A stretch of DNA of 14,427 nucleotides from Myxococcota bacterium (GTDB taxonomy: Bacteria; Myxococcota_A; UBA796; CAJQPC01). How positions within the stretch are numbered: the first letter of the stretch is position 1; each line of letters opens with the position of its first letter. The stretch is from assembly GCA_023150775.1 (NCBI GenBank), contig JAKLKE010000126.1:1-14427 (forward strand), given 5' to 3'. This document shows positions 7,386 to 12,832 of the stretch, one piece after another. The position numbers and the translations under genes were made by a program. The notes beneath the pieces were generated by a model that saw only the letters and a list, made by a program, of their open reading frames with translations, made no database searches and was not told the DNA's origin.

Positions 7386-8413
7386 TGACCCAGACCACCC
7401 ACCACCCCGACCAGCTCAAGGCCCTCGACGCGGCGCTCAACTCGCTCCACAAGCAGTACGGCCCCGGCGCGGTGATGCGCCTCGACGGCAGCGTCGCCGA
7501 GCAGACGGGCGTGCCCATCTCGACGGGCTCGCTGAGCCTCGACATCGCGCTGGGCATCGGCGGGCTGCCCCGGGGGCGTATGGTCGAGATCTACGGCCCT
7601 GAGGCCAGCGGCAAGACGACCCTCGCCCTGCACGCCATCGCCTCGGTGCAGGCCCAGGGCGGCATCGCCGCGATCATCGACGCCGAGCACGCCCTCGATC
7701 CCAAGTACGCCGCGCACCTCGGCGTGCGCCTCGACCAGCTCCTCGTCTCCCAGCCCGACTCCGGTGAGCAGGGCCTGGAGATCGCCGAGCAGATGTGCCG
7801 CTCCGGCGCCGTGGACCTCATCGTCATCGACTCCGTGGCGGCCTTGGTGCCCGAGGTCGAGCTGGAGGGCCAGATGGGCGATCAGCAGGTGGGGCTCCAG
7901 GCCCGCATGATGTCCAAGGCCCTGCGTAAGCTCACCGGCGTCGTGTCCCGCACCCGCTGCACGGTGATCTTCATCAACCAGCTCCGCCAGAAGATCGGCG
8001 TGGTCTTCGGCCCCTCTGAAGTGACGACGGGCGGCAACGCCCTGAAGTACTACGCCTCGGTGCGCATCGAGGTCCGTCGCGGCGCCAGCATCAAGGTCGG
8101 CGACAAGATCATGGGCGCCAAGACCAACGCCAAGGTGGTGAAGAACAAGCTCGCCGCGCCCTTCCGCAACGGGGAGTTTGACCTGCTCTACGGCGAGGGG
8201 GTCGATCGTCTGGGTGAGCTGGTGGATCTCGGCGAGTCCCACGGCGTCGTGCAGCGGGCGGGGGCCTGGTACGCCTTCGGTGAGGAGCGCCTCGGCCAAG
8301 GCCGAGACAAGGCCCGGGTCACCTTGGCCGAGAACGCCGCCTTGCGCGATCGAATTGAGCAGCTCGTGAAGAGCGCCTCCGGCGTGCCCAACCTCTGCGA
8401 CGAGGTGTGCTGA
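7382..8413 (+). CDS. recA: recombinase RecA
   Basis: Unmistakable RecA sequence: the Walker A '[16 protein letters not shown]', '[14 protein letters not shown]', '[31 protein letters not shown]', and '[19 protein letters not shown]'. Length is 343 aa. GGAG (7372-7375) lies 6 nt before the ATG at 7382. Confidence 0.97.
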
Positions 8414-8605: not shown

Positions 8606-9382
8606 GTGGAAGAGCGTCAGGTCGGTGCGCATGAGCTGGTGCTTCACGGCACGGAGGGTCCGCCCGTCGCGCTCGTCAGCGGGCCGCCGTTTGGCGCCGC
8701 GCTGTTTCGTGAGGTTCAGCGCCGCCTCGCCCCACGGCGCACCGTCGCCATCACCCTGCGCGCCCCCGACGCCCAGGGCCTCCCCGACCTCAGCGCGTCT
8801 TTGGCGGCCCTGCTCACTGACGTCGGCGCCCGGCGCCTCGTCGCCCATGGCCTCGCCGTGCCCGTCGCCTTGGGCCTGCCCGAGGGCCTCCTCGACGCGC
8901 TGGTGCTCACGAACGGCCCGATCACCCGGGTGGATCCTGTCGCTCGGGCGCTGGGCGCTCTGGGCGGGGCCGGGGCCACCCGCGCCGCGCTCACGACGCT
9001 CCTGCGCCCGCGCCCGCTCAACGCCTGGCTGGCCTCGTCCTTGGGCCTCCGCCGGGCGGTGGTGAACCCCTACACCATGGAGCGCGACATCGTTGCCCTG
9101 GTCACCGCGGCCTGGACGGGTGACGCCGCCGCGCGCCTCGGCGCGGCCCGCTGGTTCGCCGCCCTCGCCGCGCCCCTGCCGACATCCGGCCCCAAGAACG
9201 CGTCCCTCACGCTGATCTGGGGCGATCACGACCCGCTCTACCCCTTGGCCCAGGCCGAGGCCGCCTTGGGCTTCGCCCCCAACGCGCAGCTCCACCGCAT
9301 CCCTGGCGGCCAACATCTGCACCCTGAAGAGCGCCCGTGGGAGCTCGCCGACCTGCTCAGCGCCACGGCGTTGCGCACCTGA
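8606..9382 (+). CDS. alpha/beta-hydrolase-fold protein, apparently lacking the nucleophile Ser
   Basis: GTG start at 8606 with GGAG (8597-8600) 5 nt upstream. The fold is indicated by the acid and His regions 'LIWGDHDPLYP' and 'IPGGQHLHPEERPWELADLL'. The nucleophile elbow reads 'LVAHGLAVPV' instead of G-x-S-x-G. Stop TGA is at 9380-9382. Confidence 0.65.
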   Translation: MEERQVGAHELVLHGTEGPPVALVSGPPFGAALFREVQRRLAPRRTVAITLRAPDAQGLPDLSASLAALLTDVGARRLVAHGLAVPVALGLPEGLLDALVLTNGPITRVDPVARALGALGGAGATRAALTTLLRPRPLNAWLASSLGLRRAVVNPYTMERDIVALVTAAWTGDAAARLGAARWFAALAAPLPTSGPKNASLTLIWGDHDPLYPLAQAEAALGFAPNAQLHRIPGGQHLHPEERPWELADLLSATALRT

Positions 9383-9580
9383 GGCTCAAACTGCGACTTT
9401 TTTGTCGCGATTCGGGCCTTTTGAGGGGTGGAGAGGGGGGTGATCCCCCAGAACCGGCAAGTAAGAAGCGTCATTATCGGGCGAATCTGGCAGATGGCAC
9501 GCGGATTGCATTGTGGGCGGCGGAGACGCTGATTGGTCCGGCGGAAAGCCCCCCCGAACGCCTCACCGATCGCACAAGAG

Positions 9581-9610
9581 CCCCGGTCCTTTTGGACCGG
9601 GGTCTTTTGT
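9581..9610 (+). terminator. rho-independent terminator (9-bp GC stem, 4-nt loop, U-tract)
   Basis: ccccggtcc (9581-9589), loop tttt (9590-9593), ggaccgggg (9594-9602), followed by tcttttgt (9603-9610). The orientation suits the + strand only; the reverse complement has no U-tract. Confidence 0.6.
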
Positions 9611-9667
9611 CTCTGGGGTGCACATCTGCGCGCCTCGTCGTGCGCCACGCCGTGTATCCTCACGCCT

Positions 9668-10180
9668 ATGCCGACGATTCGCCTCGGGGTCCCCGCGGAC
9701 CATCCCCACATGCGGCCCATTGAGGAGGCCGCCGACGCCCTGTTTCACGCCGCCGGGGTGCAGCTCGGCGAGACGGGCGCGGGCCCCGCCGACGACGCGC
9801 CTTACGCCGAGGGCCTCGGCGACGGGCGGGTGCTCATCGCCGAGGACGACGCGGGCGAGCCCATTGGTTTCCTCTACTTAGAGTCTCTCGACGATCACCC
9901 CCACATCGAAGAGATCGCCGTTCACCCCCGCGCCCAGCGCCAGGGCCTCGGCTCGGCGCTCCTGCGGGCCTGCTACGCCCTCTGCCGCGAACGAGGCGCC
10001 CGCGTCTTGAGCCTCTCTACCTTTACCCACGTCCCCTGGAACGCCCCGTTCTACGCACGGGAAGGCTTTGAGGTGGTGCCCGAGGCCGCCTGGACGCCGG
10101 GCATGGTGGCGCTCAGAGCCCGCGAGGCCCGCCTGGGCCTAAGTCTTGACGAGCGCGCCGTCATGATCCGGTCGCTCTGA
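9668..10180 (+). CDS. GNAT-family N-acetyltransferase
   Basis: It has a GNAT core (VLIAEDDAGEPIGFLYLESLDDHPHIEEIAVHPRAQRQGLGSALLRACYALCRERGARVLSLSTF) and a GNAT-like N-terminus (MPTIRLGVPADHPHMRPIEEAA). The ATG at 9668 is preferred over the ORF's upstream Met at 9533, which would read through the terminator hairpin. There is no obvious SD. Stop TGA is at 10178-10180. Confidence 0.8.
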   Translation: MPTIRLGVPADHPHMRPIEEAADALFHAAGVQLGETGAGPADDAPYAEGLGDGRVLIAEDDAGEPIGFLYLESLDDHPHIEEIAVHPRAQRQGLGSALLRACYALCRERGARVLSLSTFTHVPWNAPFYAREGFEVVPEAAWTPGMVALRAREARLGLSLDERAVMIRSL

Positions 10181-10238: not shown

Positions 10239-11303
10239 GTGAGCGACTGGCGCAACAAGCTCCCTTCGGCCTACGACTATCGTGAGAGCGCCCGCGCCCG
10301 AAACACCGGTGAGCGCTTCGCCTGCGTCGTGAACCCCAAAGCGAAGGCCGGAGAGGTCGGCGCGCGCATCGACGAGATCCGCCGCGCCGTAGACCGCGCC
10401 TTCGAGCAGTGGGAGGTGTTCGTCAGCGAGGGCCCGGGCCACGCCACGGAGCTCGCCCAGCAGGCCATCGACGCCGGGTACGACATCATCGCGGCGCTCG
10501 GCGGCGACGGCACCTGCAACGAGGTCGTCAACGGCTTCTTTAACGGTCGCCTCACCCGCCGCCGCAGCGCGGTGTACACGATCTTGCCCTGGGGCACAGG
10601 CTCCGACCTCGCGAAGACCTTACGCGCCCCCGGCACCCTGGAGGACGCCCTCTGGGTGGCCTCTACGGGCATGACCCTGCCCACCGACGTGGGCCACATC
10701 GAGGGGCTCACGAACGACGGGCGCCCCTTCGAGCGGGTCTTCATCAACGTCATGGGCTTCGGCGCCAACGGCGACGTGGTGGATCGTGTCAACAAGGGCT
10801 CCAAGCGCCTCGGCGGCAAGTTCACCTTCTACAAGTCCACCGTCGACTCCCTCATGCAGTACAAGCCCGGCCAGGTGAAGGTCGAGTGGGAGGGCCCCGA
10901 CGGCCCCGGCGAGTGGACGGGGGAGCTCCTCTCGGGCTTCTTGGCCAACGGCGCCTACTGCGGCGGCGGGATGCACGTCGGCAAAGGCGGCTCGATGCAC
11001 GACGGCGCCTTTGATCTCACGCTCTTGCCCAACTTTGGCCTCATCGGAAACGTCGCCCGCTCCTGGCGGCTCTACGACGGCAGCGCCTGGAAGATCCCCG
11101 GCGCCCGCCGCGCCTACGCCACCAAAGTGACGGCGCGGGGCCTCGGCGATGAGCCCGTGCTCATCGACGTCGATGGGGAGCAGCCAGGGTTGTTGCCCGC
11201 CACCATGACCATCCTGCCCAAGTCGCTCATGGTGCGCGGCGGCTGGATTCACTCCCCCTTGCTCGAAGGGGAGCGTGAGGTCTGGCGCCCCGAGCGGGCC
11301 TGA
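10239..11303 (+). CDS. diacylglycerol-kinase catalytic-domain (DAGK_cat) lipid kinase, YegS/BmrU-like
   Basis: It carries the hallmark motif 'AALGGDGTCNEVVNG' and the N-terminal '...ACVVNPKAKAG' of DAGK_cat/YegS lipid kinases. GTG start at 10239 with GGAGG (10228-10232) 6 nt upstream. Stop TGA is at 11301-11303. Confidence 0.85.
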   Translation: MSDWRNKLPSAYDYRESARARNTGERFACVVNPKAKAGEVGARIDEIRRAVDRAFEQWEVFVSEGPGHATELAQQAIDAGYDIIAALGGDGTCNEVVNGFFNGRLTRRRSAVYTILPWGTGSDLAKTLRAPGTLEDALWVASTGMTLPTDVGHIEGLTNDGRPFERVFINVMGFGANGDVVDRVNKGSKRLGGKFTFYKSTVDSLMQYKPGQVKVEWEGPDGPGEWTGELLSGFLANGAYCGGGMHVGKGGSMHDGAFDLTLLPNFGLIGNVARSWRLYDGSAWKIPGARRAYATKVTARGLGDEPVLIDVDGEQPGLLPATMTILPKSLMVRGGWIHSPLLEGEREVWRPERA

Positions 11304-11656
11304 GCCTCGCCGACGCCGAGGGCCAAGCCTGTACAAAAGTCGCGCAGAGGCCTCTGCGGGCGGGCCTCGGCGTTGGCCCAATGGATCCTATCAGGACGCT
11401 CCTGATGGGGATCTCGAATCCCTGTGCAATCCATGTCCAAGCTCCGTCTATAGAGGGTGGTGCTGCCAACGGGGCTCGATCCCGCGGAGTCGCCGTACAT
11501 CAGAAACAATAAATATCACTATTAGGATTAATATCACATAGAGCATTCTCAAGTCGAGCGAACTCAGATCAGCGAGTGCATTTCACGAAACTCTCGCACT
11601 TATCTGAGTAGACGCGGGTTTCTCAGTGTGGTACCTTCGTTCATGCAAGGGTCAGA

Positions 11657-11690
11657 AAGAGTCATAGACTCGCCGTAGACTGCGACTCTT
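11657..11690. promoter_or_regulatory. nested palindromes (AAGAGTC-ATA-GACTC ... GACTCTT) about 40 bp upstream of the HU gene; candidate operator overlapping the promoter
   Basis: AAGAGTC (11657-11663) is the reverse complement of GACTCTT (11684-11690). Inside, GAGTC-ata-GACTC (11659-11671) is a perfect inverted repeat. A -10-like TACAAT lies at 11698-11703. The surrounding region 11480-11716 is markedly AT-rich compared with the ~70% GC context. Confidence 0.3.
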
Positions 11691-11728
11691 TAAGAAATAC
11701 AATAATCACAAGAAAGATGGAGACCGAC

Positions 11729-12022
11729 ATGAACAAGGCGGATCTGACCGAGGCGCTGGCCGAGCGCGCGAACATCCCCAAGGTGCGCGCCGCGAACTAC
11801 ATCAACATCCTCACCGAGGCCATCCGTGAGGCCCTGACCAACGGTGACAAGGTGACCATCTCCGACTTCGGCACCTTCACGATCTCGCGCCGTCGCTCGT
11901 TCAAGGGGCGCAACCCCAAGAACCGCGAAGAGATCAACGTGCCCGAGCGCCGCATCCCCGTGTTCCGCGCGGGCAAAGGCCTCAAAGAGGCCCTCAACGT
12001 CGACGACGTCGTCGCTGAGTGA
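11729..12022 (+). CDS. hup: HU-family nucleoid-associated DNA-binding protein
   Basis: MNKADLTEALAE...GDKVTISDFGTFTISRRRSFKGRNPKNREEINVPERRIPVFRAGKGLKEAL is canonical HU/IHF. The ATG at 11729 has GGAG (11719-11722) 6 nt upstream. An in-frame ATG at 11717 would add 'METD' but has no SD. Stop TGA is at 12020-12022. Confidence 0.9.
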   Translation: MNKADLTEALAERANIPKVRAANYINILTEAIREALTNGDKVTISDFGTFTISRRRSFKGRNPKNREEINVPERRIPVFRAGKGLKEALNVDDVVAE

Positions 12023-12211
12023 GCTGAGCCTCCCTCGTTGGGCGCGCGCTCGCTCCGCGCGCTCAACGAGACATCTTGACGTTTCGCTCCTGATGTACAC
12101 TCTCTCCGTGGCTTGTTCGAGCATCGGCACATCGCGTGGCCTTCGGTGATTCCCACCGTGAAGGGCGATTCGCCCACGCGGCTGCCCTTGGCAGTCGCCA
12201 GGAGCAGGTAC

Positions 12212-12832
12212 ATGGAAGAGAGCACCCACGGAGCTTCTGGCTCCTCCCCTCCTCTTGTCGAGCTTGTCGCGGACGCTCGACTGCCCAGCCGCTACGGCGA
12301 CTTCCGCGTGGTCGGATTTCGCACCTGGGACGGTGAAGACCTCGGCGCGGTCATTCGTGGCGACGTCAACGACGCCGAAGGGGTCCCGGTTCGAATGCAC
12401 TCGGAGTGCTTCACCGGCGACGTCATGGGCAGCCTACGCTGCGACTGCCGCGACCAGCTTGAGGCCGCCCTGCGCTTCATCGGTCGGGCGGAGCGCGGCG
12501 CGGTGTTGTACCTCCCGCAAGAGGGCCGGGGCATCGGCCTCGTGAACAAGATCCGCGCCTACGCGCTGCAAGACATGGGCCTTGACACCGTCGAGGCCAA
12601 CCTCGCCCTGGGCTTTGAGGACGATCTCCGCCGCTACGACGTCGCGGCGAGCATGGTCATGGCCCTCGGCATTCGTTCGGTGTGCCTGCTCACCAACAAC
12701 CCAAAGAAGATCGCCGGGTTGCGTGGCTTCGGAGTGCCCGTCGTCGGGACGATCCCCGTGCGGATGCCCCCAAACGAGCACAACCAGCACTACCTAGACA
12801 CCAAACGCGCCAAGAGCGGTCATCTGCTCTAA
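12212..12832 (+). CDS. ribA: GTP cyclohydrolase II (monofunctional RibA)
   Basis: Diagnostic motifs: 'VRMHSECFTGDVMGSLRCDCRDQLEAAL', 'LYLPQEGRGIGLVNKIRAYALQDMGLDTVEANLALGF..DLRRYDVAASMVMALGI', 'LLTNNPKKI', and 'YLDTKRAKSGH'. The ATG at 12212 has AGGAG (12200-12204) 7 nt upstream; the longer ORF start at 12113 adds a non-homologous extension. There is no DHBP-synthase (RibB) domain. Stop TAA is at 12830-12832. Confidence 0.93.
   Translation: MEESTHGASGSSPPLVELVADARLPSRYGDFRVVGFRTWDGEDLGAVIRGDVNDAEGVPVRMHSECFTGDVMGSLRCDCRDQLEAALRFIGRAERGAVLYLPQEGRGIGLVNKIRAYALQDMGLDTVEANLALGFEDDLRRYDVAASMVMALGIRSVCLLTNNPKKIAGLRGFGVPVVGTIPVRMPPNEHNQHYLDTKRAKSGHLL

Follow-up and report, generated by a model that had tools for sequence, protein, structure and literature searches.

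We analyzed positions 1 to 14,427 of contig JAKLKE010000126.1 from a Myxococcota bacterium (the window, 14,427 nt of high-GC DNA, ~70% GC), and found a strictly conserved cassette in the 285-nt non-coding gap at 9383-9667. The gap separates an alpha/beta hydrolase open reading frame (ORF), which stops at 9382, from a GNAT gene, whose ATG is at 9668, and the cassette combines a palindrome, an exact sigma-54 promoter sequence and a short segment ending in an intrinsic terminator. We propose that it is an independent small RNA (sRNA) gene of ~95 nt, which depends on an enhancer and sigma-54 and acts in trans, and we give this full reading a probability of about 0.55; that the sigma-54 promoter drives a short conserved RNA is, in our judgment, quite likely. 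On present evidence, the element is a new sRNA family of a known kind, so far restricted to uncultured Myxococcota, and not a new riboswitch. A first-pass annotation had favored a ~230-nt aptamer-like leader with a terminator that attenuates GNAT, and had named an independent ~200-nt sRNA as the alternative. The alternative was essentially right, but the RNA is predicted to measure ~95 nt and its promoter had been overlooked.

Conservation of the predicted promoter and its upstream palindrome

Related loci form two sets. For the close set, the gap was collected from eight different genomes within the clade of the window. Their GNAT proteins are 79-98% and their hydrolases 81-100% identical. 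The deep set comprises five lineages (L018, L019/L020, L021/L022, L038 and L039/L040), which together with the window make six. Hydrolase identity drops abruptly between the sets, from at least 81% to at most 49%, and the hydrolases of the five deep lineages are ~40-47% identical to each other.

Within the clade, conservation of the gap is a mosaic of nearly invariant blocks and strongly diverged spacers (Table 1). Of the variable columns in the promoter and RNA block, two lie in the N5 promoter spacer and two at -3/-2; the C-run and the terminator loop contribute one each. The promoter element varies only in its N5 spacer, and the transcribed part only in two hairpin loops. In the neighboring genes, variable columns account for 161/259 third codon positions (62%) and 111/518 first and second positions of the hydrolase, and for 102/171 third positions of GNAT. 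In the comparison of related spacers, which had been proposed as a check, the palindrome and 9495-9619 proved conserved and the rest diverged; covariation, examined among the six lineages, was seen only in the terminator. The ~230-nt leader is not one unit, as the conserved block begins only at 9495.

The reported drop in GC content was confirmed (0.62 in the gap vs 0.70-0.77 in the flanks). The whole gap folds better than shuffled sequences on the plus strand (z = -3.25) and on the minus strand (z = -2.59), and folding is stronger for a 92-nt core (z = -4.34). A covariance model (CM) built from the homologs detected one copy per locus, with the window matched at 9520-9619 (83.5 bits), and no further copies elsewhere in ~200 kb of loci. 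Two other identities of the block were rejected: a small ORF, because segment lengths differ between lineages by non-multiples of three and the overlapping ORFs have no Pfam match; and a tRNA, tmRNA or integration site, because neither tRNA/tmRNA genes nor repeats flanking GNAT were found.

The block opens with the sigma-54 promoter sequence TGGCACGCGGATTGCA. One exact consensus match was found in the window, against 0.01 expected from shuffles. GG (9496-9497), GC (9508-9509) and their spacing are invariant across the six lineages, in which the hydrolases are only 41-49% identical, so that the signature of a sigma-54 promoter, GG at -24 and GC at -12 at exact spacing, is present throughout. 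A sigma-70 promoter was rejected; the sole scan match, on the minus strand at 9500-9473, merely reads the -24 element and an AT patch backwards, and in L016 the last T of its -10 is gone. The earlier assertion that the gap leaves no room for a separate promoter is not supported, given a candidate -10 element shortly before GNAT.

Upstream of this promoter, the hairpin sequence described earlier at 9393-9408 is present and invariant among relatives. The window also has the second one, at 9424-9445, whose C-rich arm several relatives (L009, L012) do not keep. The palindrome family has the consensus CGAC(A)-N4/6-(T)GTCG, and CGAC-N6-GTCG is found in all five deep lineages (with TGAC in L018), in each case touching or overlapping the stop codon of the hydrolase gene. 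The palindrome center lies 95 bp from the -24 GG in the window and 94-98 bp across lineages except L038, in which it is closer by one helical turn, at 85 bp. The window contains one palindrome match, against 0.08 expected, and the pair of palindrome and sigma-54 promoter occurs at this site only within 245 kb of loci.

One palindrome ~100 bp upstream, joined to the promoter by a spacer fixed in length and free in sequence, is the standard enhancer geometry of sigma-54 activators. The predicted site lies where such activator sites are expected, ~80-150 bp upstream and with helical phasing, and the fixed 80-nt length of the freely varying spacer fits a DNA-looping or phasing constraint. Runs of G occur in this spacer, as does an AT-rich patch at 9471-9479, TCATTATCG, which could be an IHF-type bending site. 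Neither a bacterial enhancer-binding protein gene nor rpoN was found in the window.

An explanation without any RNA gene would make the palindrome a weak terminator hairpin of the hydrolase gene and the block a DNA element such as an integration site. The palindrome does lie directly after or over the hydrolase stop, L038, L039 and L021 have a short T-rich sequence after it, and GNAT was inserted just downstream of the block. However, a fixed spacing to a perfect -24/-12 element is unexpected for a terminator, the compensatory changes in the 9580-9603 hairpin indicate selection on RNA pairing or on a terminator, and the search for a tRNA or for repeats flanking GNAT was negative; we consider this explanation very improbable.

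Table 1. Features of the gap at 9383-9667 and genes around it. All genes listed are on the plus strand; variability refers to the 8 clade genomes.
Feature	Position	Strand	Remarks
Palindrome block	9393-9414	+	22 nt, 0/22 columns variable
Candidate enhancer (upstream activator site) for a sigma-54 activator	9393-9414	+	GCGAC-TTTTTT-GTCGC palindrome plus GATTCG; putative function
Spacer 1	9415-9494	+	Sequence strongly diverged, length exactly 80 nt in 8/8 genomes
Promoter and RNA block	9495-9619	+	125 nt, 6/125 columns variable
Sigma-54 (-24/-12) promoter sequence	9495-9510	+	TGGCACGCGGATTGCA; exact match to TGGCACG-N4-TTGCW (TGGCAC-N5-TTGCA)
Predicted small RNA	9521-9613	+	~93 nt; conserved block and CM match run on to 9619
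Central hairpin	9531-9571	+	GAUUGGU/ACCGAUC and GGCG/CGCC, 15-nt loop; minimum free energy structure
Intrinsic terminator	9580-9614	+	10-bp GC-rich hairpin 9580-9603, then T-rich tract to 9614
Spacer 2	9620 to GNAT ATG	+	Sequence and length diverged, 45-73 nt
Candidate -10 element TATCCT	9655-9660	+	7 nt before GNAT ATG 9668; putative
comM	from 5548 (alternative start 5581)	+	
Small ORF	7050-7385	+	
recA	7382-8413	+	
Alpha/beta hydrolase	8606-9382	+	
GNAT	9668-10180	+	
DAGK/YegS-like kinase	10239-11303	+	
HU	about 11729-12022	+	
ribA	about 12212-12832	+	

The gene order around the cassette bears on its relation to GNAT. The recA...hydrolase...DAGK-HU-ribA synteny is retained in 5/5 deep lineages and GNAT is absent from all of them; in L018, L019, L021, L038 and L039, the hydrolase is followed by the element and then by DAGK, with the cassette inside a hydrolase-kinase gap of 220-340 nt. 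On this arrangement, the cassette is ancestral to the hydrolase-DAGK junction of this Myxococcota group. Exact-pattern matches came from metagenome-assembled genomes labeled Myxococcota, Deltaproteobacteria or Pseudomonadota, and carriers of the element are known from wastewater, river and other metagenome assemblies. A scan of JGI metagenomes with a first pattern gave 0 matches; a looser pattern gave 15 loci, all of which were chance matches in coding-like sequence without promoter or C-loop.

A riboswitch or attenuator leader of ~230 nt (9383-9610), transcribed from upstream and controlling GNAT, could draw on the terminator lying 58 nt before the GNAT ATG and on the better-than-shuffled folding of the gap. 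We nevertheless give it next to no credence. Its would-be aptamer at 9415-9494 is not conserved in sequence, the conserved part opens with a sigma-54 promoter, the same element stands without GNAT downstream in five lineages, and GNAT has a -10-like motif of its own. As to the hallmarks of an aptamer/attenuator architecture, no conserved antiterminator was seen, and no helix upstream of the terminator showed covariation, at the little power that six lineages give. As for the constant downstream gene expected of a riboswitch, GNAT does not qualify; the DAGK-like kinase gene is constant, inseparably from the synteny of the whole block. The first-pass annotation had recognized no known riboswitch class, which agrees with 0 Rfam 15 matches in the whole window at the gathering threshold. 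No family emerged for the gap even at E<=10, where the only matches were sub-threshold and terminator-driven (Spot_42, 17 bits vs 80; anti-hemB, 16 vs 49.5), and at E<=1 the five distant loci had none at the homologous site.

The predicted RNA and its possible modes of action

The terminator described before GNAT was confirmed, with a stem of 10 pairs (8 G-C), a TTTT loop and the tail CTTTTGTCTC. A terminator scan returned 2 overlapping calls, against 0.6 expected in shuffles. Pair counting and RNAalifold showed that 4/12 aligned pairs of the helix are compensatory and 96.8% of cells are paired, which no shuffle or slid register matched; among the six lineages, this is the only helix supported by covariation. 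The hairpin sequence differs between lineages, its energy is -17 to -26 kcal/mol in all of them, and the pyrimidine-rich tail is kept. No conserved antiterminator was found in folds of the nascent transcript: pairings of the terminator 5' strand gain 0.8-6.7 kcal/mol with lineage-specific partners, and the candidate CCGGCG:CGCCCGG is broken in L019 without compensation.

With +1 placed 12 nt past the -12 C (9509), the predicted transcript would start at ~9521, end at ~9613-9619 and measure ~93-99 nt. In all lineages, the first base of GGAGA falls between +2 and +4 relative to the predicted start. Outside the terminator, conservation of the RNA resides in primary sequence, namely the 5' GGAGA, GUCCGGCG, the C-rich loop and CCUCACCG. 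GUCCGGCG, at 9536-9543, takes the form GU(C/U)CG(G/A)CG in the deep lineages, and CCUCACCG, at 9561-9568, is invariant in 6/6 lineages. The central loop carries a run of seven C (9549-9555); a C-run is present in 5/6 lineages and missing in L038.

The outer helix of the central hairpin, GAUUGGU/ACCGAUC in the window, was favored in a cognate-versus-swapped energy test (3/720 permutations), with support only in the window, L018 and L021; L019, L038 and L039 instead pair GGU(C/U)CGG with the stretch just before CCUCACCG. The other consensus helices (1 and 2) consist of invariant columns and are hence uninformative for covariation, for which six lineages give little power. Three further structures or functions were rejected. 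A 5'-3' closing helix, GGAGAC/GUCUCU, suggests itself in the window and L021, but cognate pairing (-9.0 kcal/mol) does not outdo swapped (-7.6) or shuffled tails. A pseudoknot between a GGGG in the tail and the C-loop shows no covariation; L038 has GGGG without the C-run, and L021 and L019 have the C-run without GGGG. The GGA motifs expected of a CsrA sponge are not conserved.

Conserved primary motifs together with a covarying terminator fit a seed-type sRNA better than a ligand-binding aptamer, at the little power that six lineages afford. The element has the attributes of a trans-acting sRNA, with its own predicted promoter and terminator, an intergenic position and conserved candidate seeds, whose single-strandedness is taken from predicted folds. 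We hypothesize that a signal-activated enhancer-binding protein, encoded outside the window, binds the palindrome at 9393-9408 and reaches the -24/-12 promoter (9495-9510) by looping out the intervening ~95 bp, a fixed distance. Transcription would then start near 9521 and stop at hairpin 9580-9603 and its U-rich tail, releasing an RNA of ~93-99 nt. This RNA would most likely act in trans by base pairing with G-rich ribosome-binding sites of target mRNAs, through the C-run of the central loop and/or the anti-Shine-Dalgarno-like CCUCACCG, both of which are probably exposed pyrimidine-rich motifs.

Several observations weigh against this model. The transcription start, the 3' end and the dependence on sigma-54 are all predictions from sequence, and no activator gene lies adjacent to the element. 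Outside the terminator, the lineages fall into two structural subtypes. The U-tracts are interrupted, and the scan rule for terminators is satisfied in 4/6 lineages, with L018 and L019 one U short. A simple terminated sRNA would not account for the conservation of a further ~6 nt past the T-tract (TCTCTGGGGT, to 9619). Only ~30-40 nt lie between the hairpin and the start of the kinase gene in L039 and L038; the kinase must therefore be transcribed through the element there, which makes a cis role possible. Duplex prediction against neighboring genes returned only long, meaningless duplexes and identified no target.

Some of these points are what a cis-acting leader or attenuator would predict. 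Here, the sigma-54 promoter would conditionally drive the operon that follows, which was ancestrally DAGK-HU-ribA and gained GNAT in the clade of the window, and the RNA would be its 5' leader; a factor or ligand acting on the conserved motifs would modulate read-through of the hairpin, and the short RNA would be either a by-product or part of an RNA with two functions. In every locus, the next gene after the element is the kinase gene, or GNAT and then the kinase gene; the hairpin-kinase gap of L039 and L038 is too short for another promoter, the imperfect U-tracts make read-through plausible, the conserved tail to 9619 would exist only in a read-through RNA, and the leader is conserved far beyond the needs of a passive untranslated region. 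However, no antiterminator is conserved (alternatives reach at most 6.7 kcal/mol vs 17-26 for the hairpin), the terminator helix alone covaries, and the distance to the next gene varies from 30 to 125 nt in unconserved sequence. In addition, a foreign gene with its own -10-like motif is tolerated between element and kinase gene in the window's clade, and adjacency to the kinase is not independent evidence, since the whole recA-to-ribA synteny is conserved. We regard this explanation, the main rival, as unlikely, though deserving of serious attention.

A dual-function riboregulator would combine both modes, with the terminated ~95-nt form acting in trans via CCUCACCG and the C-run, and the read-through form serving as a regulated leader of the DAGK/YegS-like operon; in the latter, the conserved GGGG tail past the terminator would fold back to pair with the C-rich or the CCUC region. 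We find this improbable. If true, it would represent a new sigma-54-controlled attenuator or riboswitch class in uncultured Myxococcota.

The predominance of primary-sequence conservation, with helices that vary between lineages, also raises the idea that GGAGA, GUCCGGCG and CCUCACCG bind an RNA-binding protein or mimic anti-Shine-Dalgarno (anti-SD) or SD sequences, so that the RNA titrates its partner. The RNA has both an SD-like GGAGA and an anti-SD-like CCUCACC, and Myxococcus xanthus has no hfq homolog (PMC5684412). Nonetheless, repeated motifs of the CsrB or 6S type are missing, each motif being present in a single copy, the GGA of the loop is not conserved, and nothing points specifically to a protein partner. 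Such a decoy is, in our view, more doubtful still than a dual-function RNA, and a trans-acting, base-pairing sRNA continues to be the reading that we prefer.

The GNAT gene and other features of the window

The GNAT start at ATG 9668 is supported by codons 1-14, which are conserved with synonymous changes in relatives, and by distant GNATs, which align over 98% of the 170-aa form; some gene callers start at ATG 9710. The candidate -10 element TATCCT is kept in most relatives; in L006 its place, again 7 nt from the ATG, is taken by TAAGCT within an otherwise unalignable spacer. No Shine-Dalgarno sequence was seen before the ATG. The GNAT mRNA thus appears, from these sequence features, to be leaderless and transcribed from its own promoter.

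The absence of GNAT after the same cassette in the five deep lineages indicates that GNAT is a clade-specific and, by its looks, recent insertion between the terminator of the element and the kinase gene, the element itself being older and independent. Beyond the clade, its nearest homologs come from actinobacteria (Zhihengliuella, Microbacterium; 39-44% identity). The GNAT gene was probably acquired horizontally and inserted beside the sRNA terminator; no repeats were found to flank it.

Farther downstream, the kinase-HU gap (11304-11728, plus strand, 425 nt) is very AT-rich for this genome in its second half, which includes aacaataaatatcactattaggattaatatcacatag and a repeated (A/T)ATATCAC; long gaps precede HU in distant lineages too. 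This gap may be the regulatory region of HU. Just past the HU stop, at 12031-12073 (plus strand), a long GC-rich hairpin, CCCTCGTTGGGCGCGCG...CGCGCGCTCAACGAGACA, is probably the terminator or stabilizer of HU, and its only Rfam match was a meaningless, sub-threshold one to a microRNA.

The leader of ribA (GTP cyclohydrolase II) at 12126-12211 (plus strand), which spans ~85 nt up to ATG 12212, is strongly conserved in all lineages. Homologous sites are L019 ~6767-6845, L021 ~6950-7032, L038 ~6140-6224, L039 ~6048-6130 and L006 ~5447-5533. A candidate three-way junction is formed by a long-range CGCGU/ACGCG helix, a hairpin that varies in length and has compensatory changes in two pairs, and GGGC/GCCC. 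It is followed by the hairpin GCGACUGCC-UCCU-GGCAGUCGC, which shares GCG with the long-range helix; the anti-SD segment of this hairpin, CCUCCUGG, is complementary to the SD CCAGGAGG and could alternatively sequester it. In the alignment, 97.6% of cells are paired and 16/500 shuffles reach the observed covariation score. The leader is not an FMN riboswitch and gave no match in Rfam, down to E<=10; it looks like a translational riboswitch or SD-sequestering switch.

Upstream of comM, a second sigma-54-like element, CTGGCACGCTCCTTGCG, lies at 5528-5544 (plus strand), with one mismatch to TGGCAC-N5-TTGCA. It is 37 nt upstream of ATG 5581, which equals the comM start called in L001. The motif also occurs in L001 (4094), L003 (23) and L017 (7626, minus strand), was not found in L038, and has no CGAC-N6-GTCG palindrome upstream. 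It thus qualifies as a putative sigma-54 promoter of comM, the small ORF and recA. Somewhere between this promoter region and recA, the window (~5545-7053) differs from the otherwise near-identical contig L001 (4146-5672) by 54 nt (18 codons, in frame), which shifts the coordinate offset from 1435 to 1381.

A long ORF on the minus strand at 3022-5466 has Major Vault Protein domains (MVP shoulder, E=1.7e-19; Vault_3; Vault repeats); the annotation of L001 has it as a gene of 733 aa. In a bacterium, homologs of vault proteins are unusual.

Comparison with known systems

To our knowledge, sigma-54-dependent sRNAs are few, comprising Pxr, Qrr, GlmY/Z, CrcZ, NrsZ and a handful more. Each of those known sits at the output of a signaling pathway. 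Qrr1-5 of Vibrio and CrcZ and NrsZ of Pseudomonas measure ~100 nt or more, need an active, phosphorylated NtrC-type activator and end in intrinsic terminators, and their RNA level reports the signal. These RNAs are Hfq-dependent or act as Crc/Hfq sponges, belong to Gammaproteobacteria and are all in Rfam; they have no homology to the element, which gave no Rfam match.

The proposed pairing resembles that of RsaE/RoxS and RepG, in which a C-run in a hairpin loop pairs with G-rich ribosome-binding sites without Hfq. However, these RNAs have sigma-70-type promoters, come from other phyla and are unrelated in sequence, and the C-run of the element is missing in L038. Terminating riboswitches and leader attenuators are similar to the element in being conserved structured RNAs that end in a terminator just upstream of a gene. 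Unlike them, the element showed, at the low power of six lineages, no covarying aptamer helices, and it has no conserved antiterminator, a variable downstream gene and what appears to be its own enhancer-dependent promoter. For annotation, the lesson is that a terminator ahead of a gene need not mean a riboswitch.

In its layout, the element is similar to GlmY/GlmZ of Enterobacteriaceae, which likewise combine an sRNA gene, a -24/-12 promoter, palindromic activator sites at a distance of ~100 bp or more and an AT-rich intervening region. At the GlmY promoter, the GlrR sites lie >100 bp upstream of the -24/-12 element, with IHF sites between (PMC3045617). GlrR has three TGTC-N10-GACA sites, whereas the element has one CGACA-N4-TGTCG palindrome. 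The RNAs themselves are unrelated and come from another phylum, and GlmY acts by protein mimicry.

Within Myxococcota, the closest parallel is Pxr of M. xanthus, the species without an hfq homolog, where a ~108-nt intergenic sRNA with a sigma-54 promoter and an upstream enhancer has been reported (PMC5568312, PMC5684412). The last of its stem-loops is reportedly needed for accumulation, and a C-to-A change in a loop is reported to abolish function (PMC5568312, PMC5684412). Pxr and the element have only phylum, size and the sigma-54 promoter in common. The Pxr gene is flanked by pxrR/nla19 and an NADH dehydrogenase gene and has its activator next to it; the element has hydrolase and GNAT/kinase neighbors and no activator nearby. 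Similarity to Pxr did not appear among Rfam covariance-model matches at E<=10, in a library for which the presence of a Pxr model was not separately confirmed. As sequence, structure model and locus all differ, the element is not a member of the Pxr family.

Taken together, these comparisons suggest that Myxococcota have, besides Pxr, a second family of sigma-54 sRNAs, which is unrelated to the first and more strictly conserved than the proteins encoded beside it. Such a family would indicate that an important post-transcriptional circuit under signal control operates in these lineages, which are known only from metagenomes, and the conserved palindrome offers a handle on the cognate activator and its regulon.

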